DNA of 32,000 nt from positions 1,710,001 through 1,742,000 of the forward strand of contig NC_006624.1 in assembly GCF_000009965.1 (NCBI RefSeq), written 5' to 3'. Shown piece after piece: positions 219 to 11,009 of the stretch. Made by a program: the position numbers and the translations under genes. Numbering within the stretch: position 1 is the stretch's first letter; each line of letters begins with the position of its first letter. The notes below the pieces were generated by a model, which was given only the letters and a program-made list of their open reading frames with translations, did no database searches and was not told where the DNA came from. The DNA is from Thermococcus kodakarensis KOD1. Lineage in GTDB: Archaea > Methanobacteriota_B > Thermococci > Thermococcales > Thermococcaceae.

Positions 219-1250
219 TTAAATGCCGTTATCCCCAACCTCCCGAAGGACTATGAGCTTTGAACCCTCTGGAACCGGGGAGTCAAGCCTTGGAACGAGC
301 ACTGGGCGGTTGGTGTAGTAACCCATCACGTACAAATTATACTTCCTCTGAACCAGCTCAAGCGCTTCCGAGTACTTCACACCCCAGACTTCTGGGAGTT
401 CAACCACGGTGATGTCGTACCCTCCAAGGGAGCTTGTTATGTCGTCAATGACGTCCACAACTTCAGGCTCGATGACGGCGCTGGCGAGCAGCCTACCCGC
501 TAGACCTCTGCTGAGGATAACCCTGTCGGCCCCAGCCTGTTTCAACAGGTCTATGCTGTCCGCGCTCAGGGCTTCCACGAACACCTTTGCACCGGAAATG
601 CTCTTGACACGGAGGGTCACGAAGACCGACTTCGAGTCATCGTCGAGAGCCAGAACAACATGGGAAGCACTCTCGACCCGGGCCCTTTCGAGTGTCTCCT
701 TATTGATGGGGTCACCTATAAGAACCTCGACTTCCTCTGGAAGCTCAACCTTCCTGCGCTCTTCTTCGTTAGGGAATACCACAACAACTGGCCTGTGGGG
801 AACCTCTCCTCGGCCCATCGCAGAGAGTATCTCGTCCACAAAGCTGGCCACGCTACTACCCTGCCCGATTACAACGTAATGTCCCGAGTACCCAACACGG
901 TGCATGCCCATCATCCTCCTAAGTGAGGAAGAAATTAGGAATTCAGCCAGAAGGGAAACGAGGGCCGTAAAAGTAGAGATGCCCGCGACCGCCGCAACCA
1001 TAGCAACTATTCTTCCCGCCTCCGTCTGAGGGGTTATATCACCGTAACCTATCGTCGCCATGGTTATTACGGCCCAGTAGAAGGCAGTGAAGAAGTCCAG
1101 CCCTTCAAAGTACGCAAACAGTCCGGCAAAGACTAAGGAGAGAACTATCACAGCAGCACCTATCTGTAGGAGCTTGCTCCGCCTCACCCGATATCTAATC
1201 TTAACAAGCCTGCGGATTACAGTTATCGGTATCATCGTTGTGGTGTGCAT
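219..1250 (-). CDS. MthK-like potassium channel with RCK/TrkA domains
   Basis: 343-aa ORF. K+ selectivity-filter signature TMATIGYGDITP lies between two hydrophobic helices. It is followed by a Rossmann-type RCK/TrkA-N segment (YVVIGQGSSVASFVDEI) and a TrkA-C-like C-terminus. Confidence 0.85.
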   Translation of the reverse strand: MHTTTMIPITVIRRLVKIRYRVRRSKLLQIGAAVIVLSLVFAGLFAYFEGLDFFTAFYWAVITMATIGYGDITPQTEAGRIVAMVAAVAGISTFTALVSLLAEFLISSSLRRMMGMHRVGYSGHYVVIGQGSSVASFVDEILSAMGRGEVPHRPVVVVFPNEEERRKVELPEEVEVLIGDPINKETLERARVESASHVVLALDDDSKSVFVTLRVKSISGAKVFVEALSADSIDLLKQAGADRVILSRGLAGRLLASAVIEPEVVDVIDDITSSLGGYDITVVELPEVWGVKYSEALELVQRKYNLYVMGYYTNRPVLVPRLDSPVPEGSKLIVLREVGDNGI

Positions 1251-1323
1251 GCAAGGGGTTAAAAACGTTGGGACGTGGTTAAGTGAACTTTAATGAACAT
1301 AAGAATACCACTAGGCACAAGTT

Positions 1324-1345
1324 TTCCAGTGGAAACGGAACTCTT
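1324..1345 (+). promoter_or_regulatory. mini-ORB / partial ORB (TTCCAGTGGAAACGGAACTCTT), no G-string
   Basis: Exact TTCCAGTGGAAAC core. The extension GGAAACGGAACTCT parallels GGAAACAGAACTCT of the ORB at 1649..1674. Confidence 0.7.
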
Positions 1346-1366
1346 TTTCGATACTCATCGAAAAGA

Positions 1367-1393
1367 CCCCCCAGAGTTTTATTTCCACTGGAA
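1367..1393 (-). promoter_or_regulatory. Full ORB element (minus-strand reading TTCCAGTGGAAATAAAACTCTGGGGGG)
   Basis: Plus strand reads CCCCCCAGAGTTTTATTTCCACTGGAA. The reverse complement gives the ORB core plus a G-string, as in the Orc1/Cdc6 origin recognition boxes defined in Sulfolobus and Pyrococcus. Confidence 0.8.
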
Positions 1394-1648
1394 CCAACTT
1401 TCGGAGAATGGATGGATTTGATGGCTTTAAACAACAGAAAGGGTATTTTTAAAGCGTCTGTGTCAATGTAAATATGATTTTGTTCATTTAAACTTTGTTC
1501 TTTCAGTATTTTTTCAATCTTACATCTTAATACCCGCTAATTATTGAACATTGTTTATGGAAAATTATAAATACATGATGGGAAAGAAAAAGCGGGAGTG
1601 TTTGCACCAAAATTCGATATTGAAAATGGGTGTAGCAACGAAAGCTGC
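1394..1648. other. AT-rich putative duplex unwinding element between the inverted ORBs
   Basis: Strongly AT-rich, for example AAATATGATTTTGTTCATTTAAACTTTGTTCTTTCAGTATTTTTTCAATCTTACATCTTAATA. It is bracketed by ORBs pointing away from each other. Confidence 0.65.
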
Positions 1649-1674
1649 CTCCACTGGAAACAGAACTCTGGGGG
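1649..1674 (+). promoter_or_regulatory. Full ORB element (CTCCACTGGAAACAGAACTCTGGGGG)
   Basis: ORB core (quasi-palindromic variant TCCACTGGA), conserved AACTCT spacer and G-string. Inverted relative to the ORB at 1367..1393. Confidence 0.8.
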
Positions 1675-1785
1675 ACTACAAAATTGTTTATTTTTTGAGA
1701 TTGCGAAAACAAAGATGTTTTCTAAAAATGATCCCTTTTGTCCATCATTGTTCGTGTTTTCATGTATATCCCTGTTCATTCCTCT

Positions 1786-2014: not shown

Positions 2015-2142
2015 CCCTCGTGAATGTTCAATATTTCCCCATATTTCCTATCAAAATGTTGAAATAAGGATATGTACTGGTCATTTCGATGGAAAGCGCA
2101 CTATCATATTGACGGAACGACTTCCATCGAGTATGATTTCAA

Positions 2143-3405
2143 GTGGAGAGTGGGACGATGGACGATGACTACCTCAGTTCAATATTCGAGAAGTACCTCC
2201 ATGCCAGGAAGATATTCAAGAACAAAGAAGTGCTTAGGCACAGCTATACCCCAAAGGAGCTTCCACACAGGCACAAGCAGATAGACGACCTTGCCCACAT
2301 TCTTGTTCCAGTTCTCCGCGGTGAAACTCCGTCTAATGTTTTTGTGTATGGGAAAACTGGAACTGGAAAGACCGTAACCGTCAAGTTCGTTACTGAGGAA
2401 CTGAAGAAGATCTCCCAGAAGTACAATATTCCTGTTGAGGTTATCTATATCAACTGTGAAATAATTGATACTCACTACCGCGTTCTCGCAAGGATTGTAA
2501 ACCACTTCAAAGAGGAGAGCGGGATCGAGGTTCCCCTCGTCGGCTGGCCCACCGATGAGGTCTATGCAAAGCTCAAGGAAGTCATTGATGCCAAGGAGCG
2601 CTTCGTTATAATAGTCCTCGACGAGATAGACAAGCTCATCAAGAAGAGTGGAGACGACATCCTGTATTCTCTGACGAGGATCAACAGCGAGCTTAGCAAG
2701 GCAAAGGTAAGCATCATTGGGATTTCCAACGACCTCAAGTTCAAAGAGTACCTGGATGCGCGCGTTCTCTCCAGCCTGAGCGAAGAGGAGGTCGTTTTCC
2801 CGCCATACGACGCGAACCAGCTCAGGGACATCCTCATGCAGCGTGCCAAGGAGGCTTTTTATGAGGGTGTGCTGGACGATGCGGTTGTGCCGCTGTGTGC
2901 CGCCCTCGCAGCCAGGGAGCACGGAGACGCGAGGAGAGCCCTCGACCTTCTGAGGGTTGCGGGTGAAATAGCGGAGCGCGAGGGGGCGAGCAAAGTTACA
3001 GAGAGGCACGTCTGGAAAGCCCAGGAGAAGATTGAACAGGACACAATGGAAGAGGTTATAAAAACCCTTCCTCTCCACTCAAAGGTTCTCCTCTACGCGA
3101 TAGTCATGCTCGATGAAAACGGCGAGCTCCCTGCCAACACCGGTGAGGTTTACTCAATTTACAAGATGCTCTGCGACAGCCTCGACGTTGAGCCCCTCAC
3201 CCAGAGGCGCGTGAGTGATCTGATCAACGAACTTGACATGCTCGGCATTATCAACGCCAAGGTCGTCAGTAAGGGCCGTTATGGGAGAACAAAGGAGATA
3301 AGGCTCAACGTGACTCCGTATATGGTGAAGAACATATACCGCCACGATGAGCAGGTTCGCCCGCTCCTCACCCTGAGCCTCTCTCGCCAGAGGAGGTTGT
3401 TCTGA
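2143..3405 (+). CDS. cdc6: Orc1/Cdc6 replication initiator (AAA+ plus C-terminal winged helix)
   Basis: Walker A GKTGTGKT, Walker B VIIVLDEID, sensor region GDARRALDLLR, and N-terminus ...RKIFKNKEVLRHSYTPKELPHRH typical of Thermococcales Cdc6. The ORF-track start is GTG 2143; ATG at 2158 (MDDDYL...) is an equally plausible start. Confidence 0.95.
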   Translation: MESGTMDDDYLSSIFEKYLHARKIFKNKEVLRHSYTPKELPHRHKQIDDLAHILVPVLRGETPSNVFVYGKTGTGKTVTVKFVTEELKKISQKYNIPVEVIYINCEIIDTHYRVLARIVNHFKEESGIEVPLVGWPTDEVYAKLKEVIDAKERFVIIVLDEIDKLIKKSGDDILYSLTRINSELSKAKVSIIGISNDLKFKEYLDARVLSSLSEEEVVFPPYDANQLRDILMQRAKEAFYEGVLDDAVVPLCAALAAREHGDARRALDLLRVAGEIAEREGASKVTERHVWKAQEKIEQDTMEEVIKTLPLHSKVLLYAIVMLDENGELPANTGEVYSIYKMLCDSLDVEPLTQRRVSDLINELDMLGIINAKVVSKGRYGRTKEIRLNVTPYMVKNIYRHDEQVRPLLTLSLSRQRRLF

Positions 3406-5612
3406 TGCTGGTGGAGGACCTCCTTAAGAACAACTACCTTATCACGCCGTCCGCGTATTATCTGCTCTCGGACCACTACAAGAAGGCCTTTACCCTGGCC
3501 GAGCTGATAAAGTTCGCCAAAAACCGGGGGACGTTCGTTGTAGACTCCAACCTTGCCAGAGAGTTCCTGGCGGAAAAGGGCATAATTTCCAGTGGAAATG
3601 GTGCCCTTGACGGTTCAGTACTCTCTGGGATCAGCGTTTCTGAATCTCCTGTGAAACCTAACGGGGAGGCAGTTCTGGAATCTGAATCTGATGAATCTGG
3701 GGCCATTGAATCTTCTCTCCAGGAAGGAGTTGAGGATGGGGTCGAATCTATAGCTGAGCCAAGTGCGGCGTCTGTTGAAGATGTTGTCGTCGCTGGGGAA
3801 AGTTCTCTAGCATCTGAAGGCTCTTCACTGGAGGATGAAATCAACACTGAACCAGAGTTATCATCCTCTATGGATGATGGTGCTGAAGTTGTTCAGTCTT
3901 CTGAGGGGGATGAGACCTCTATTTCCACTGGAAATGCCTTGGGATCTGTGGACTATGGTGGCTCTGATTCTGAATCAGAAGCTTTAGAAGAGGCCTCCTC
4001 TGGGGGGGAGAGTTTCATTTCCACTGGAACTCCTGAAGATGAGGCCCTCCTAGAAGAGTCCCCTGAAGGAGAATTTCCCGATGAAAACGGCTTCTCTGAT
4101 GAGTCCCTTCCAGTGGAAAACGGGAGTGAGAATGGGTATGGGGACTCTGAAGAGTACTACGAGAACGGCGACAACGGTGTCAAGCCGAAGATAGTCTACG
4201 GTGACTACGGTGTCCCAATAGCCTACGTTGCAGATGAAACTCCGGAGGAAGAGAAAGCCTATTCGACGTATTCCGACCTAGTGATAGCCCCAAAGGAGGG
4301 CTTCCACTACAGGGCAAAGGAGATTCCCGACGAGTGGGAGCTGGCCTTTGACGTCAAGAACGTGAAGTTCGAGGTTCCCAAGGTCAAGAACGCCCAGAGC
4401 AAGGAGGGTGAGGTCATAATCCAGGCATATTCCAGCTACTTCAAGTCCAGGCTTAAGAAGATGCGGAGGATCTTCCGCGAGAACCCTGAAATCGGCACGA
4501 TAGTGGATATCGCCAAGCTGAGCTACGTCCGAGAAGATGATGTCACGATAATCGGGCTCGTCAATGAAAAGCGCGAGACAAGAAAGGGCTACCTCTTTGA
4601 GATCGAGGACGCCACGGGAAGGATCAAGGTCTTCATAGGCTCGGACAAGGAGGGTGCAAATGAAGCCTACAGCACGATAATGCCCGATTCTGTTGTTGCT
4701 TTCAGGGGCACCCCCGGGAAGGGAATATTCTTCGCAAACAGGGTGTTCCTCCCGGACGTTCCGAAGTTCAAGAGGTCAAAACCACCGCTTGAGGAGAAGG
4801 TCTACGCCATCCTGCTCAGCGACATCCACGTCGGTAGCAACAAGTTCTGCGAGGAAGCTTTTATCAAGTTCCTTGAGTGGCTCAACGGCGAGGTTAACAG
4901 CAGAACCGAGGAAGAGCTGGTGAGCAGAATCAAGTACATCATTATTGGCGGCGACGTCGTTGACGGCGTCGGCATCTATCCGGGCCAGTATAACGAGCTG
5001 GCGATTCCAGATATCTTCGACCAGTATGAGGCCCTTGCAAACCTGCTGAAACAGGTTCCGGACCACATAACGATGTTCATCGGGCCTGGAAACCACGACG
5101 CGGCCAGAACGGCCCTTCCGCAGCCGGGCTTCTACGAAGAGTATGCAAAGCCGCTCTACAAGCTCAAGAACGCTGTGATAATCAGCAATCCTGCCGTAAT
5201 ACGGCTTCACGGCAGGGACTTCCTCGTAGCCCACGGCAGGGGAATAGAGGACGTCGTTGATTTTGTCCCCAACAGGAGCCACCACAGGCCCGCTGAGGCA
5301 ATGGTAGAGCTTCTTAAGCTCAGACACATAGCTCCGACCTTCGGGAACAAGGTTCCGATAGCTCCCGACCCCGAGGATACGCTCGTCATCGAGAGCGTTC
5401 CAGACCTATTCCAGGCAGGCCACGTCCACGTCATGCAGTACAAGACGTACAACGGCGTCTTCGTCATAAACACCGGTACGTGGCAGGCGCAGACTGAATT
5501 CCAGAAGATGGTGAACATAATCCCGACTCCGGCGAGGGTTCCGATAATCGACGTTGAAACCGCCCGCCTGAGGGCTGTGGTTAGGTTTGACCAGTTTTGC
5601 GAGGGGGTTTGA
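3405..5612 (+). CDS. polB: DNA polymerase D (Pol II) small subunit DP1, with a long acidic insertion
   Basis: The ATG shares its A with the cdc6 TGA (TGATG). C-terminal calcineurin-like phosphoesterase motifs are LSDIHVGS, GGDVVDG, GNHD and GHVH, with an OB-fold region before them. Residues ~61-258 are a Ser/Glu/Asp/Gly-rich low-complexity insertion. Confidence 0.95.
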   Translation: MLVEDLLKNNYLITPSAYYLLSDHYKKAFTLAELIKFAKNRGTFVVDSNLAREFLAEKGIISSGNGALDGSVLSGISVSESPVKPNGEAVLESESDESGAIESSLQEGVEDGVESIAEPSAASVEDVVVAGESSLASEGSSLEDEINTEPELSSSMDDGAEVVQSSEGDETSISTGNALGSVDYGGSDSESEALEEASSGGESFISTGTPEDEALLEESPEGEFPDENGFSDESLPVENGSENGYGDSEEYYENGDNGVKPKIVYGDYGVPIAYVADETPEEEKAYSTYSDLVIAPKEGFHYRAKEIPDEWELAFDVKNVKFEVPKVKNAQSKEGEVIIQAYSSYFKSRLKKMRRIFRENPEIGTIVDIAKLSYVREDDVTIIGLVNEKRETRKGYLFEIEDATGRIKVFIGSDKEGANEAYSTIMPDSVVAFRGTPGKGIFFANRVFLPDVPKFKRSKPPLEEKVYAILLSDIHVGSNKFCEEAFIKFLEWLNGEVNSRTEEELVSRIKYIIIGGDVVDGVGIYPGQYNELAIPDIFDQYEALANLLKQVPDHITMFIGPGNHDAARTALPQPGFYEEYAKPLYKLKNAVIISNPAVIRLHGRDFLVAHGRGIEDVVDFVPNRSHHRPAEAMVELLKLRHIAPTFGNKVPIAPDPEDTLVIESVPDLFQAGHVHVMQYKTYNGVFVINTGTWQAQTEFQKMVNIIPTPARVPIIDVETARLRAVVRFDQFCEGV
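3587..4121. repeat. Four ORB/mini-ORB-like motifs inside the DP1 coding sequence
   Basis: TTCCAGTGGAAA 3587..3598; TTCCACTGGAAA 3923..3934; AGAGTTTCATTTCCACTGGAAC 4009..4030 (21/22 identical to oriC ORB 1373..1394); TTCCAGTGGAAAAC 4108..4121. The motif matches are seen directly; their function is inferred. Confidence 0.6.
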
Positions 5613-8600
5613 ATGAGCGAGGAGATTTACTCGCCTGAAATGAAGGCTTACTTCGAGTCACTCCAGCGCGAGATAGACAGGGCCTATGCGATAGCGAGGA
5701 AGGCCCGCGCACAGGGTAAGGATCCGAGCTTTGACGTTGAGGTTCCGCAGGCTACTGATATGGCTGGCCGTGTTGAGAGCCTCGTCGGACCGCCCGGCGT
5801 GGCCGAGAGGATTAGAGAGCTAGTCAAAGAGTATGGCAAGGAGATAGCTGCCCTTAAAGTTGTTGATGAGATAATCGAGGGCAAGTTCGGTGACCTTGGG
5901 AGCAAGGAGAAGTACGCTGAGCAGGCGGTGAGGACTGCCCTGGCAATTCTAACGGAAGGTATAGTTTCCGCTCCACTGGAAGGTATCGCTGACGTTAAAA
6001 TAAAGCGCAACGAGTGGGCCGACGGGAGCGAGTACTTAGCTCTCTACTATGCCGGCCCGATCAGGAGTTCCGGTGGAACGGCTCAGGCTTTGAGCGTTCT
6101 CGTTGGTGATTACGTGAGGAGAAAGCTCGGTCTCGACCGCTTCAAGCCGAGCGATGAACACATTGAGAGGATGGTCGAAGAGGTTGACCTCTACCACAGG
6201 GCTGTTACGAGGTTGCAGTACCACCCGGAGGCAGACGAAGTAAGGCTCGCCATGAGGAACATCCCGATCGAGATAACCGGTGAGGAGACCGATAAAGTTG
6301 AAGTCTCTCACAGAAACGTCCCCGGTGTTGAGACGAACCACCTCCGCGGCGGTGCCATTCTCGTTCTCGCTGAAGGTGTCCTGCAGAAGGCAAAGAAGCT
6401 CGTGAAGTACATAGACAAGATGGGGATCGAGGGCTGGGACTGGATAAAGGAGTTCGTGGAAGCCAAGGAGAAGGGCAAGAGTAGTGAAGAGAATAAAGAC
6501 GAATCGAAGGCCGAGGACACTGGAACTGAGAGCGTCGCTGAAAAGAAGGAGAATGTCGAGAAGGGTTTCTATTACGAGCTCTACGAGAAGTTCAGGGCCA
6601 ATATTGCCCCCAACAAGAAGTACACCAAGGAGATAATCGGTGGAAGACCCCTCTTCGCCGAGCCTTCGACCAACGGCGGCTTCAGGCTCAGGTACGGCCG
6701 CTCAAGGGTCTCCGGCTTTGCGACCTGGAGCGTCAATCCAGCAACAATGCTCATTCTGGACGAGTTCATAGCAATTGGGACCCAGATGAAGACGGAGAGG
6801 CCAGGTAAGGGTTGTATCGTGACTCCAGCGACTACGGTGGAGGGTCCGATCGTCAGGCTCAAGAACGGGAGCGTGGTAAGGGTAGATGACTATGAAACGG
6901 CTCTAAAGGTCAGGAACGAGGTTGACGAGATCCTATACGTTGGCGATGCGCTCGTAAACTTCGGCGACTTCGTCGAGAACAACCAGACGCTTCTCCCGGC
7001 AAACTACGTCGAGGAGTGGTGGGTTCAGGAGCTAGTACAGGCCATCAAAGACCTCTACGAGGTTGAGCTTCAGCCCTTTGCTGAGAACGACAGGGAAGCC
7101 GTAGAGGAAGCGGCTGAGTACCTTGAGGTAGACCCCGATTTCCTGTGGAACCTCTTGAAGGATCCGCTCAGGGTTAAACCAGATGTGGAGACGGCCATTC
7201 ACCTTTCAACGGTTCTCGACATACCGTTCCACCCGTACTACACCCTCTACTGGAACACCCTTCAGCCGGAAGAGGTCGAGGAACTCCAGAAGGCCCTTCT
7301 GGGTGCTCAGATAGAGTGGGCTGAGTTCAGAAAGAACCGCTTCGCGAAGAAGGTCGTCCTTGAGAACGATAAAAATATCAAACGCTACCTTGAGCTCCTC
7401 GGCCTGCCCCACAGGCTTGAAAGGGTTGAGAAGAAGAGGAAGGTCATCGTCGTTGAATATCCCTGGAGTGCGGCCCTTCTGACGCCGCTCGGCAACCTTG
7501 AGTGGGAGTTCAAGGCAAAGCCCTTCTACACGGTCATAGACATCATCAACGAGAACAACAGGATAAAGCTCCGCGATAGGGGAATAAGCTGGATCGGCGC
7601 GAGGATGGGAAGGCCAGAGAAGGCCAAGGAAAGAAAGATGAAGCCGCCGGTCCAGGTTCTCTTCCCGATAGGCCTTGCCGGCGGCCAGAGCAGGGACATC
7701 AAGAAAGCCGCCGAGGAAGGAAAAACGGCCAGGGTTGAGATAGCCTTCTTCAAGTGTCCCAAGTGCGGCCACGTCGGGCCGGAGCACCTCTGCCCCGTCT
7801 GTGGAACCAGGAAGGAGCTCCTCTGGCACTGCCCGAAGTGTGGAGCGGATTATCCTGAGAGCGATGCAAAGGACTTTAACTACCGCTGTCCGAAGTGCGA
7901 CGTTGAGCTCAAGCCCTACGCGGAGCGGGAGATAAAGCCCGCCGACCTGTTAAGGCAGGCCATGGACAACGTCAAGGTCTACGGCATAGACAGGCTCAAG
8001 GGCGTTAAGGGTATGACCTCCGGCTACAAGATGGCCGAGCCGCTGGAGAAGGGTCTTCTCCGTGTTAAAAACGACGTCTACGTCTTTAAGGATGGTACAA
8101 TCCGCTTCGACGCGACCGACGCTCCAATAACCCACTTCAAACCTAAGGAGATAGGGACGAGCGTCGAGAAGCTGAGGGAGCTCGGCTACACTCACGACTT
8201 CGAGGGGAAGCCCCTCGAGAGGGACGACCAGATACTCGAGCTGAAGGTCCAGGACGTTATTCTGCCCTACGAGGCAGGGAGGTACCTCCTCAAGGTGGCG
8301 CGCTTCATCGATGACCTCCTTGAGAAGTTCTACGGATTACCCAGGTTCTACAATGCCGAGAAGATGGAAGACCTTGTGGGTCACCTCGTTATAGGTCTCG
8401 CTCCACACACCTCGGCTGGAATCATTGGGAGGATAATCGGCTTTTCAGACGTTCTCGTTGGCTACGCACACCCGTATTACCATGCGGCGAAGAGGAGGAA
8501 CTGCTTCCCAGGTGACACGAGGATACTCGTCCAGATCAACGGCCTTCCTCAGAGGATAACCCTCAGGGAACTCTACGACCTCTTTGAAGACGAGCGGTAC

Positions 8601-11009
8601 GAAAACATGGCCTACGTGAGAAAGAAGCCGAAGGCGGACGTCAAAGTTTATTCATTTGACCCAGAGAGCGGAAAGGTCGTCCTTACTGACATAGAGGACG
8701 TCATAAAGGCTCCATCGACGGATCATTTGATAAGGTTCGAGCTTGAGCTCGGCAGGAGCTTTGAGACGACTGTTGACCATCCGGTGCTTGTCTACGAAAA
8801 CGGCAAGTTCGTTGAGAAGAGGGCCTTTGAGGTTAGGGAAGGAGATAGAATCCTCGTGCCTAATTTGAAGCTTCCTGAAAAGAACATTGACTACCTTGAT
8901 CTGCTAAAAGAGTTCTCCAGAGAGGAGTTTGCTCATCTTCACGATAGGATAATGGTTCGTGGAATAGCAGAGTGGCTCCGCTCAGTTGAGGCTGATGTAA
9001 AAGAAGACTACCTGCGCAGAGACTCCATACCTTTGAGCGTCCTTCTAAGGGTTCTCACGGAGAAAGAGATATCCATTGAGGAAGTACCTTCCTGCTGGCT
9101 TGGATTTAAGCGCGATAAAGTAAGAATCAAGCGGTTCGTACCTCTCAAACCTCTCCTCCGCGTCGTTGGGTACTACCTTGCCGAGGGCTATGCAAGAGAA
9201 AGCAAGAGTGTCTATCAGCTGAGCTTCTCGATGGCAGAGAAGGAGGTTAGGGAAGACCTCAAGAGGGCACTCAGAGAAGCTTTCGGGGACGGTTTTGGTA
9301 TCTACGAGAGGGGAGGGAAAGTTACAGTTGGCTCGCGTATTCTCTACCTGCTGTTTACGGAAGTTCTGAAGGCTGGAAAGAACGCATACAGCAAGCGCGT
9401 TCCGTCTCTTGTTTTCACACTGCCACGTGAAGCCGTTGCAGAGATGCTTAAGGCATACTTCGAGGGAGATGGAAGTGCCCTTAAGTCCGTGCCTCGTGTG
9501 GTAGCGTATAGTGTTAATAAGGCCCTCCTTGAGGACATTGAGACACTGTTGCTTGCCAAGTTCGGCATTCGTGGCTATTACACCTTTGACAATAATGCCA
9601 ATAGAGGCAACGCTCGCGGGAGACTGTATCACGTTGAACGCGGAACTGAGGCTCCAGTTTCAAAAGTCTACGCCCTTAACATTGCAGGTGAGCACTACCA
9701 CAGGTTCTTCAATAGCATTGGCTTTGTGAGTGAACGCAAGAACTCAATCTATGAGCTTCATGCTGAGAAATCTCCAGCTCAGGATAGATATTCCTCACAG
9801 AATGGCTGGCTGGTGAAAGTCAGGCGCATTGAATACATCACACCAAAAGATGATTTCGTGTTCTCTTTAAACGCTAAAAAGTATCATAATGTGATAATTA
9901 ACGAAAGTATTGTAACACACCAATGCGACGGCGACGAAGACGCTGTAATGCTCCTCCTCGATGCCCTCCTCAACTTCAGCAAATACTATCTGCCCGAAAA
10001 GCGCGGCGGCAAGATGGACGCTCCTCTGGTCGTTACCACCCGTCTTGACCCGAGGGAGGTAGACAGCGAGGTTCACAACATGGATGTGGTCAGGTACTAT
10101 CCTCTCGAGTTCTACAAGGCCACCTACGAGCTCAAGTCTCCAAAGGAAGTGAAGGTCATAGAGCGCGTTGAGGACCGCCTGGGCAAGCCCGAGATGTACG
10201 AGGGGATAAAGTTCACCCACGATACGGACGACATTGGTCTCGGCCCGAAGATGAGCCTGTACAAACAGCTCGGCGACATGGAGGAGAAGGTCGCCAGACA
10301 GCTCGCTCTGGCAGAGAGGATAAGGGCCGTGGATGAGCACCACGTTGCTGAAACGATAATCAACTCTCACCTCGTTCCGGACCTTAGAGGCAACCTTAGG
10401 AGCTTCACGAGGCAGGAGTTCCGCTGCGTCAAGTGCAACACGAAGTACAGAAGGCCACCTTTGACCGGCAAGTGCCCGAAGTGCGGCGGAAAGATAGTCC
10501 TCACCGTCAGCAAGGGTGCAATAGAAAAGTACCTGCCCACGGCCAAGATGCTCGTTACTAAGTACAGAGTAAAGGACTACACGAGGCAGAGGATATGCAT
10601 AACCGAGAAGGACATAAAGACGCTCTTCGAGAACGTCTTTCCTGAGAAACAGAGGACCCTCATGGGCTTCTCGGCGGACATCTGCGAGAAGATGGTCAAG
10701 GAGAGGACGGGTCATTCCAACGGAAAGAACGGCTACCTCGACGAGTTCAACGGGAAGAACGGAAAGGCCAGCAAAAAGTCTGGGAGTTTAGCCTCAAAGC
10801 TCTCTGGAAAAGGCAAAGAACCCTCGAAAAAGAAGGAGAGTGCAAAACCCAAACGCTCCGAGAAGGTCAAGAACCTCACCAGCTTTGAAGCGGCCGCTAA
10901 GAATGAGCAGGCAAGAGGAACGGCAGGGAACGCTAAGAAGGCTGAGAGTGAGAAGCCAAAGAGAAAGAAGCGGAAAGGCATAAGCCTCGACGAGTTCTTC
11001 GGCTCGTAA
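5613..11009 (+). CDS. polC: DNA polymerase D (Pol II) large subunit DP2, intein-containing precursor (1798 aa; 1324 aa after splicing)
   Basis: Starts immediately after the DP1 stop. Cys clusters are CPKCGHVGPEHLCPVCG, CPKCGADY..CPKCD and CVKCNTKYRRPPLTGKCPKCGG. The conserved DP2 catalytic region is split by an intein. Lys-rich C-terminal tail ends in ISLDEFF. Confidence 0.95.
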   Translation: MSEEIYSPEMKAYFESLQREIDRAYAIARKARAQGKDPSFDVEVPQATDMAGRVESLVGPPGVAERIRELVKEYGKEIAALKVVDEIIEGKFGDLGSKEKYAEQAVRTALAILTEGIVSAPLEGIADVKIKRNEWADGSEYLALYYAGPIRSSGGTAQALSVLVGDYVRRKLGLDRFKPSDEHIERMVEEVDLYHRAVTRLQYHPEADEVRLAMRNIPIEITGEETDKVEVSHRNVPGVETNHLRGGAILVLAEGVLQKAKKLVKYIDKMGIEGWDWIKEFVEAKEKGKSSEENKDESKAEDTGTESVAEKKENVEKGFYYELYEKFRANIAPNKKYTKEIIGGRPLFAEPSTNGGFRLRYGRSRVSGFATWSVNPATMLILDEFIAIGTQMKTERPGKGCIVTPATTVEGPIVRLKNGSVVRVDDYETALKVRNEVDEILYVGDALVNFGDFVENNQTLLPANYVEEWWVQELVQAIKDLYEVELQPFAENDREAVEEAAEYLEVDPDFLWNLLKDPLRVKPDVETAIHLSTVLDIPFHPYYTLYWNTLQPEEVEELQKALLGAQIEWAEFRKNRFAKKVVLENDKNIKRYLELLGLPHRLERVEKKRKVIVVEYPWSAALLTPLGNLEWEFKAKPFYTVIDIINENNRIKLRDRGISWIGARMGRPEKAKERKMKPPVQVLFPIGLAGGQSRDIKKAAEEGKTARVEIAFFKCPKCGHVGPEHLCPVCGTRKELLWHCPKCGADYPESDAKDFNYRCPKCDVELKPYAEREIKPADLLRQAMDNVKVYGIDRLKGVKGMTSGYKMAEPLEKGLLRVKNDVYVFKDGTIRFDATDAPITHFKPKEIGTSVEKLRELGYTHDFEGKPLERDDQILELKVQDVILPYEAGRYLLKVARFIDDLLEKFYGLPRFYNAEKMEDLVGHLVIGLAPHTSAGIIGRIIGFSDVLVGYAHPYYHAAKRRNCFPGDTRILVQINGLPQRITLRELYDLFEDERYENMAYVRKKPKADVKVYSFDPESGKVVLTDIEDVIKAPSTDHLIRFELELGRSFETTVDHPVLVYENGKFVEKRAFEVREGDRILVPNLKLPEKNIDYLDLLKEFSREEFAHLHDRIMVRGIAEWLRSVEADVKEDYLRRDSIPLSVLLRVLTEKEISIEEVPSCWLGFKRDKVRIKRFVPLKPLLRVVGYYLAEGYARESKSVYQLSFSMAEKEVREDLKRALREAFGDGFGIYERGGKVTVGSRILYLLFTEVLKAGKNAYSKRVPSLVFTLPREAVAEMLKAYFEGDGSALKSVPRVVAYSVNKALLEDIETLLLAKFGIRGYYTFDNNANRGNARGRLYHVERGTEAPVSKVYALNIAGEHYHRFFNSIGFVSERKNSIYELHAEKSPAQDRYSSQNGWLVKVRRIEYITPKDDFVFSLNAKKYHNVIINESIVTHQCDGDEDAVMLLLDALLNFSKYYLPEKRGGKMDAPLVVTTRLDPREVDSEVHNMDVVRYYPLEFYKATYELKSPKEVKVIERVEDRLGKPEMYEGIKFTHDTDDIGLGPKMSLYKQLGDMEEKVARQLALAERIRAVDEHHVAETIINSHLVPDLRGNLRSFTRQEFRCVKCNTKYRRPPLTGKCPKCGGKIVLTVSKGAIEKYLPTAKMLVTKYRVKDYTRQRICITEKDIKTLFENVFPEKQRTLMGFSADICEKMVKERTGHSNGKNGYLDEFNGKNGKASKKSGSLASKLSGKGKEPSKKKESAKPKRSEKVKNLTSFEAAAKNEQARGTAGNAKKAESEKPKRKKRKGISLDEFFGS
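8502..9923 (+). mobile_element. Intein (474 codons) with LAGLIDADG homing-endonuclease domain in DP2
   Basis: In-frame. The N-terminal splicing block CFPGDTRILV follows extein ...AAKRRN. Block B is TVDHPVLV. Two LAGLIDADG motifs are present (VVGYYLAEGYA, LKAYFEGDGSA). The C-terminal block is VFSLNAKKYHNVIINESIVTHQ, followed by the +1 Cys of CDGDEDA. The flanks closely resemble the P. abyssi PolII mini-intein as I recall it. Confidence 0.9.

Follow-up and report, generated by a model that had tools for sequence, protein, structure and literature searches.

A cluster of origin recognition boxes inside the dp1 gene of Thermococcus kodakarensis, present at most Thermococcales loci compared and probably providing auxiliary Orc1/Cdc6 sites

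We analysed a stretch of 32,000 nucleotides from the chromosome of Thermococcus kodakarensis KOD1 (NC_006624.1, positions 1,710,001 to 1,742,000; hereafter the window), which is a Thermococcus replication-origin locus with oriC, the initiator gene cdc6/orc1, and dp1 and dp2, the genes of DNA polymerase PolD. Positions 3585-4121, inside dp1, hold one long origin recognition box (ORB) of the ORB3 type and three mini-ORBs. We identify them as the Thermococcales dp1 ORB cluster, which most probably provides auxiliary Orc1/Cdc6 sites acting together with oriC, in an accessory role and not as a site of initiation. The dp1 ORB cluster itself is a known feature. Matsunaga et al. 2007 (Nucleic Acids Res 35:3214; PMC1904270) described a second ORB cluster in dp1, so that cdc6 is flanked by two clusters, and the window holds an orthologous instance of it. 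The present analysis adds five points not found in the 2007 paper: selection on the DNA at the level of codons, use of the motif in two reading frames, a 96-bp spacing, the G-tract of Thermococcus, and two independent losses of the cluster.

A test for the ORB core found four exact TTCCA-N-TGGAA cores in dp1, and the motifs occupy the places assigned to them in a first-pass annotation made from the sequence alone, i.e. TTCCAGTGGAAA at 3587-3598, TTCCACTGGAAA at 3923-3934, TTCCACTGGAAC at 4019-4030 and TTCCAGTGGAAAAC at 4108-4121. Their translations in the DP1 frame (ISSGN, ISTGN, ISTGT and LPVEN) also agreed with that annotation. According to the domain map, they fall in the linker between the N-terminal domain of DP1 (PolB_N, aa 3-56) and its OB/phosphoesterase core (aa 380-676); the disordered, acidic part of this linker, approximately aa 57-260, carries the cluster. 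The four sites are as follows.

3585..3599, minus strand: dp1 site 1, a perfect 15-bp dyad ATTTCCAGTGGAAAT, read as ISSGN, right after the DP1 N-terminal domain
3906..3935, plus strand: dp1 site A, a mini-ORB extended in part on its 5' side, GGGGATGAGACCTCTATTTCCACTGGAAAT, translated as SISTGN
4002..4030, plus strand: dp1 site B, the ORB3 equivalent, GGGGGGGAGAGTTTCATTTCCACTGGAAC, read as GGESFISTG, 96 bp downstream of site A
4108..4121, minus strand: dp1 site C, a mini-ORB, read as LPVEN in the other frame, inverted with respect to site B and 89 bp downstream of it

Such clustering cannot be accidental. The degenerate 11-mer TTCCASTGGAA matches six times in the 32 kb of the window, where 0.07 matches are expected from shuffles, not one of 100 of which reached six, in agreement with the annotation, which had excluded chance. 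Two of the six matches are in oriC (1324 and 1383) and four in the DP1 linker; the remaining approximately 28 kb of the window contain none. The resemblance to oriC extends beyond the core. The 22-mer AGAGTTTCATTTCCACTGGAAC (4009-4030) differs from the oriC ORB AGAGTTTTATTTCCACTGGAAC (1373-1394) at a single position and is preceded by seven G residues (4002-4008) where the oriC copy has six C residues, both as previously annotated; site B matches P. furiosus ORB1-3 as well as the ORB1 of the window (21/22). Orientation of the sites was taken from their flanks, because the central base alone is unreliable for this purpose (ORB2 of oriC has a central C although it is inverted). Judged in this way, the third and fourth sites form an inverted pair with cores inside and extended halves outside, like ORB1 and ORB2. 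The annotation had described them as facing outward, which holds for this geometry, the label itself being a question of wording.

The counterpart in Pyrococcus (P. abyssi, P. furiosus and P. horikoshii) lies in the same gene, in the 5' third of dp1 and immediately downstream of cdc6, and has the same make-up, with one longer ORB, 13-bp mini-ORBs and the same ORB3 core AGAGTTTYATTTCCACTGGAA. The window agrees with this description in that its sites lie towards the 5' end of dp1, with cdc6 directly upstream, and comprise one long ORB with mini-ORBs; the published ORB3 oligonucleotide (…GAGAGTTTTATTTCCACTGGAAGT…, PMC1904270) is the counterpart of window positions 4008-4030. Pyrococcus ORB3 differs in having no G-tract of the Thermococcus kind, and the number and position of mini-ORBs differ as well. 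A further difference is that the Pyrococcus cluster has been bound by Cdc6/Orc1 experimentally, whereas the window sites are known from their sequence. In P. abyssi, chromatin immunoprecipitation (ChIP) and ChIP-chip showed that Cdc6/Orc1 occupies both the oriC and the dp1 clusters in vivo, with a dp1 signal comparable to that of oriC (PMC1904270). In gel shifts with purified P. furiosus Cdc6, ORB3 was bound somewhat more weakly than the oriC ORBs, half-maximal binding being reached at ~240 nM as compared to 110-150 nM for ORB1/ORB2 (PMC1904270). The two-cluster organisation was reported to be conserved in the three Pyrococcus genomes and in T. kodakarensis, and Matsunaga et al. suggested a role in initiation, by analogy with the DnaA-box clusters flanking dnaA of B. 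subtilis (PMC1904270). Three proposals of the first-pass annotation, namely a second cluster in dp1 that brackets cdc6, selection on the DNA motif instead of the peptide, and additional binding sites for Orc1/Cdc6, are in line with the experiments on the orthologous Pyrococcus cluster (PMC1904270).

For comparison, 32 Thermococcales loci were assembled, 28 of them from species-representative genomes, together with T. litoralis, P. abyssi, Palaeococcus pacificus and T. peptonophilus; most comparative loci are contigs of metagenome-assembled genomes (MAGs). The dp1 cluster is present in 26 of the 32 loci, spanning Palaeococcus, Pyrococcus and Thermococcus, and from this distribution we conclude that it is ancestral. 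Per kb, the exact 11-mer occurs 2.19 times in the dp1 linker, 1.07 times in the oriC region and 0.024 times in distant flanks, defined as DNA more than approximately 1 kb downstream or 5 kb upstream, where 8 isolated copies are spread over 337 kb. Hence, the motif is uncommon in coding DNA; had it been common there, the reading given in the annotation would have been refuted.

Codon choice within the motif was then considered, with the peptides searched first, so that the search was blind to the codons. The codon string nTT TCC AST GGA encodes 59 of the 64 linker peptides of the form [ILVF]S[ST]G, while the background usage in the same genes is 0.11 for TCC, 0.24 for ACT and 0.22 for GGA. Shared ancestry was controlled for by 55 invariant residues of the catalytic domain. 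Their synonymous codons are scrambled: the top codon reaches a mean frequency of 0.59, and an invariant Gly may serve as illustration (GGC 11, GGG 7, GGT 6 and GGA 3 times). Furthermore, translation of the motif differs with the frame in use, giving [IV]S[ST]G in one and [LV]P[VL]E in the other, and at site B, with the logo G.GGGggaGAGTTtt.TTTCCACTGGA, conservation reaches into the ORB-specific flank; here Ser is AGT in 20 of 21 lineages and Gly is GGG in 17 of 21. Because motif codons are near invariant in about 30 lineages as opposed to the scrambled catalytic control, because two frames are used and because the ORB flank is conserved, selection acts on the DNA sequence of the dp1 sites and not on the encoded peptide, as the annotation had argued. 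A pairwise comparison with T. peptonophilus, in which sites 1, A and B are perfect islands, points the same way but is weak alone, this pair being 88% identical overall.

The spacing of the sites is conserved as well. In 22 of 23 lineages, P. abyssi among them, exactly 96 bp separate sites A (3923) and B (4019), which have the same orientation (standard deviation, SD, 1.8 bp). The length of the linker upstream of A and downstream of B differs between lineages with an SD of 65-77 bp, and the 27 residues between the two sites are essentially unconserved. The third site follows 77-110 bp further downstream across lineages and is often inverted. Many lineages also have a site at the position of site 1 (+182 to +190), where the N-terminal domain of DP1 has just ended. 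We considered whether the 96-bp unit originated as a tandem repeat and rejected this: Tandem Repeats Finder reported nothing in 3400-4400 and only a trivial 11-nt repeat in one further locus (L003), and only the ORB parts of the unit are conserved. It is conceivable, though on balance rather doubtful, that the dp1 cluster is a helically phased Orc1 array in which geometry is selected as well as sequence. As a matter of speculation, 96 bp would correspond to about nine turns if the helical repeat were ~10.7 bp at growth temperature, the gap minus two Orc1 footprints would approximate one archaeal histone tetramer, and a phased array could seed the assembly of a defined nucleoprotein structure in which cdc6 is looped out together with oriC.

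The cluster resembles oriC in its sites and differs from it in their setting. The intergenic elements are listed below.

1323..1345, minus strand: mini-ORB or near-full ORB without G-tract, TTTCCAGTGGAAACGGAACTCTT, diverging from ORB1; member of two inverted repeats
1366..1394, plus strand: ORB1, CCCCCCAGAGTTTTATTTCCACTGGAAC, in a 36-nt inverted repeat with ORB2
1400..1640: AT-rich interval flanked by ORB1 and ORB2, with GC content down to 0.305, presumptive unwinding element of oriC
1647..1675, minus strand: ORB2, CTCCACTGGAAACAGAACTCTGGGGG, inverted with respect to ORB1

ORB1 of the window matches P. furiosus ORB1 (PMC1904270). Both ORB1/ORB2 and the ORB/mini-ORB elements defined in Sulfolobus (ref. 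7 of PMC1904270) have the dyad core TTCCA-N-TGGAA and the 5' extension AGAGTTTCAT in common with the dp1 sites; an inverted pair occurs in oriC as in dp1, and in Pyrococcus the same initiator recognises both. In contrast to the oriC ORBs, the dp1 sites lie in coding DNA, have a G-tract instead of a C-tract, and enclose no AT-rich element (GC approximately 0.5 as compared to 0.305). More exactly, GC content over the dp1 cluster (3600-4200) is 0.47-0.52, against 0.305 at 1401-1600 in oriC, and no AT-rich stretch of the kind that inverted ORBs surround in a replication origin was found at 3600-4200. Lacking an AT-rich unwinding element, the dp1 cluster would not itself act as an initiation site and should not be called a second origin. 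As for the G-tract of ORB3 (4002-4008), it sits at the same offset as the C-tract of the oriC ORBs (1367-1372) and is kept across Thermococcus (GGG codon in 17/21), while it is absent from P. abyssi and P. furiosus; possibly, G- and C-tracts are equivalent for readout of the minor groove or of DNA shape.

Several observations weigh against an auxiliary role of the dp1 sites. The T. litoralis clade (L017, L020-L022 and L042) has no match in dp1 even when up to 2 mismatches are allowed. In this clade only ~290 bp lie between a TIP49-family gene and cdc6, which is consistent with the published location of oriC in T. litoralis and T. sibiricus, at a distance of 349-453 kb from cdc6 (Cossu et al. 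2015). The second lineage without any match at up to 2 mismatches is L023, a high-GC MAG nested among cluster-bearing Thermococcus. Here, a canonical oriC adjoining cdc6 is retained (7828-8704 of that contig), with full ORBs at L023:8011-8038 and L023:8292-8320, while the linker of its DP1 (L023:10001-11914) differs in sequence, being rich in Pro/Glu and free of ORB-like motifs. Moreover, site C is degraded (TTACACTGGAAAAC) in the closest relative, T. peptonophilus, and a lone mini-ORB bound Cdc6 weakly in gel shifts (PMC1904270). Finally, cdc6 and oriC of T. kodakarensis can be deleted without phenotype (PMC5663688), and any contribution of the dp1 cluster must therefore be conditional; later work on Thermococcus origins, this deletion study included, removed or analysed the intergenic ORBs only (PMC5663688). 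Sequence comparison indicates at least two losses of the cluster, one in the T. litoralis clade and one in the lineage of L023, and because two lineages do without it, it is dispensable, i.e. accessory and non-essential. We also considered the rule that a dp1 cluster occurs only where oriC adjoins cdc6; this fits the T. litoralis clade and is weakened by L023, and loss of the cluster is not strictly coupled to relocation of the origin. Outside Thermococcales, no repeated motif common to the cdc6 flank and dp1 was seen in Methanococcoides, Woesearchaeota and Bathyarchaeia (three loci, a small sample).

Among other explanations, control of the operon survives best, even though we consider it unlikely. 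Orc1/Cdc6 bound within dp1 would then act as a roadblock or attenuator of cdc6-dp1-dp2 transcription, tying the expression of PolD to the level of the initiator. The arrangement of the genes is in favour of this: in T. kodakarensis a single operon comprises cdc6, dp1 and dp2 (PMC5663688), in the window these genes adjoin or overlap one another, and the sites are in the transcribed region just downstream of cdc6. However, the T. litoralis clade and L023 have an intact operon despite the loss of the dp1 sites, and a different mini-ORB preceding cdc6, which is kept in every lineage examined, is the better candidate for an operator. Operon control could also coexist with auxiliary initiator sites.

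The remaining explanations fare considerably worse. If ISTG/ISSG and LPVE were selected as short linear motifs of the protein, the resemblance to ORBs would be incidental; in favour of this, [IV]STG recurs every 31-32 aa in the majority of Thermococcales DP1 proteins, and no island of the linker other than GESFISTG is conserved. Nevertheless, synonymous positions are frozen in the motif (the 59/64 above) and free at invariant catalytic residues, the two frames yield unrelated peptides, the conserved flank (AGAGTTT and the G-tract) follows the ORB consensus and not a peptide pattern, and lineages without the motif retain a normal DP1. On the strength of the codon test with its catalytic control and of the use of two frames, we rejected this reading as highly improbable. 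Just as improbable is a functionless relic, be it origin repeat DNA captured into the open reading frame or a recent duplication or gene conversion. The linker is indeed of low complexity and rich in indels, and its sites resemble the oriC copies at 21/22 positions, but the sites have been retained in Palaeococcus, Pyrococcus and the majority of Thermococcus lineages, the synonymous sites of which are saturated, no tandem repeat was detected at the DNA level, conservation within the 96-bp unit is confined to its ORB parts, and the orthologous sites are occupied in vivo (PMC1904270). Least probable of all is a regulatory structure formed by pairing of the dyad motifs in dp1 mRNA: TTCCACTGGAA at 4019 and TTCCAGTGGAA at 4108 are exact reverse-complement 11-mers, yet the RNA fold of 3900-4135, on which we rejected this reading, is no more stable than its shuffles (z = +0.25; 119 of 200 shuffles were as good or better), several lineages have the central base of site B also in the third site, which breaks complementarity, and pairing leaves the conserved 5' extension unexplained.

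Returning to auxiliary Orc1/Cdc6 sites as the preferred explanation, we propose that they have been overprinted on the codons of a tolerant, disordered linker of DP1. The dp1 and oriC clusters, bracketing cdc6, would raise and stabilise the local occupancy by Orc1/Cdc6 around oriC. A possible route is cooperative, helically phased binding, or a higher-order complex or loop that would enclose cdc6, and the cluster might in this manner help to mark the single origin. Cooperation or looping between the dp1 cluster and oriC is our inference. A comparable situation exists in the bipartite origin of B. subtilis, where the initiator gene is also flanked by clusters of initiator sites and loop formation has been proposed. 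Its proteins and motifs are unrelated, and its origin does not function unless both clusters are there. The dp1 cluster, in contrast, is coding DNA and has been lost by two natural lineages; indirectly, these two losses argue against a universal requirement for both clusters. Another candidate analogy is datA of E. coli, a locus for titration or storage of the initiator that is situated far from oriC and acts via hydrolysis of DnaA-ATP. Similarly, a cluster outside the unwinding region could buffer free initiator, although the dp1 cluster, in contrast to datA, is only ~2.3 kb away from oriC.

The genes of the origin part of the window are arranged as follows.

219-1250, minus strand: ion-channel gene
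Between the ion-channel gene and cdc6/orc1, ~900 bp: intergenic oriC
2143..3405, plus strand: cdc6/orc1 initiator gene (domains Cdc6_C, Cdc6_lid and AAA)
3405..5612, plus strand: dp1, small subunit of PolD, 735 aa
5613-11009: dp2, adjoining dp1

Cdc6/Orc1 is 82-95% identical across all Thermococcales loci, and the closest match of DP1 is that of T. peptonophilus (88% identity). The open reading frame of cdc6, as called mechanically, begins at GTG 2143. The true start is likely the in-frame ATG at 2158 (MDDDYLSSIFEKYL…), since it fits the 415-aa length and the N-terminus of related proteins. DP2 has 1798 aa and contains an intein of the LAGLIDADG homing-endonuclease type in its catalytic domain (DP2 aa 983-1436, window ~8559-9920); DP2 of T. 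peptonophilus has no intein and comprises 1323 aa, while inteins are carried by Palaeococcus pacificus and P. abyssi.

Additional ORB-like elements were noticed around cdc6 and within the dp1 cluster. In all Thermococcales loci examined, including those of the T. litoralis clade, L023, Palaeococcus and Pyrococcus, the start codon of cdc6 is preceded at ~10-15 bp by a mini-ORB of the form [AG]TTTCCA[GCA]TGGAG. Its copy in the window (2136-2148, ATTTCAAGTGGAG) is degenerate, with 2 mismatches. This element is likely an autoregulatory operator of Cdc6. Further upstream, a TATA-like sequence ATATAAAC at 1953-1960 precedes a pair of degenerate mini-ORB-like elements, CTTCCAGTGTATCC at 1984-1997 and GTTCCTGTGGAG at 2002-2013, and this layout recurs ~130-250 bp upstream of cdc6 in nearly all loci. 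In several lineages, P. abyssi included, a mini-ORB match is found inside cdc6, ~280 bp into the gene and at about -980 from the start of dp1 (L030, L006, L009, L027 and L043); it does not occur in the window. Lastly, dp1 site 1 is at the centre of a 36-nt inverted repeat (3556-3628, 72% complementary), the ends of which, CCAGAGAG and CTCTCTGG, are perfectly complementary and similar to the ORB extension; this may be due to chance.

The value of these results is mainly that of validation: a genuine cluster of initiator-binding sites, concealed in coding DNA and backed by experiment, was recovered by sequence reading alone. Synonymous recoding could remove the dp1 sites without altering DP1. 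Should the sites indeed form a phased array, the initiator sites overprinted on the DP1 linker would to a large extent determine its amino-acid sequence.

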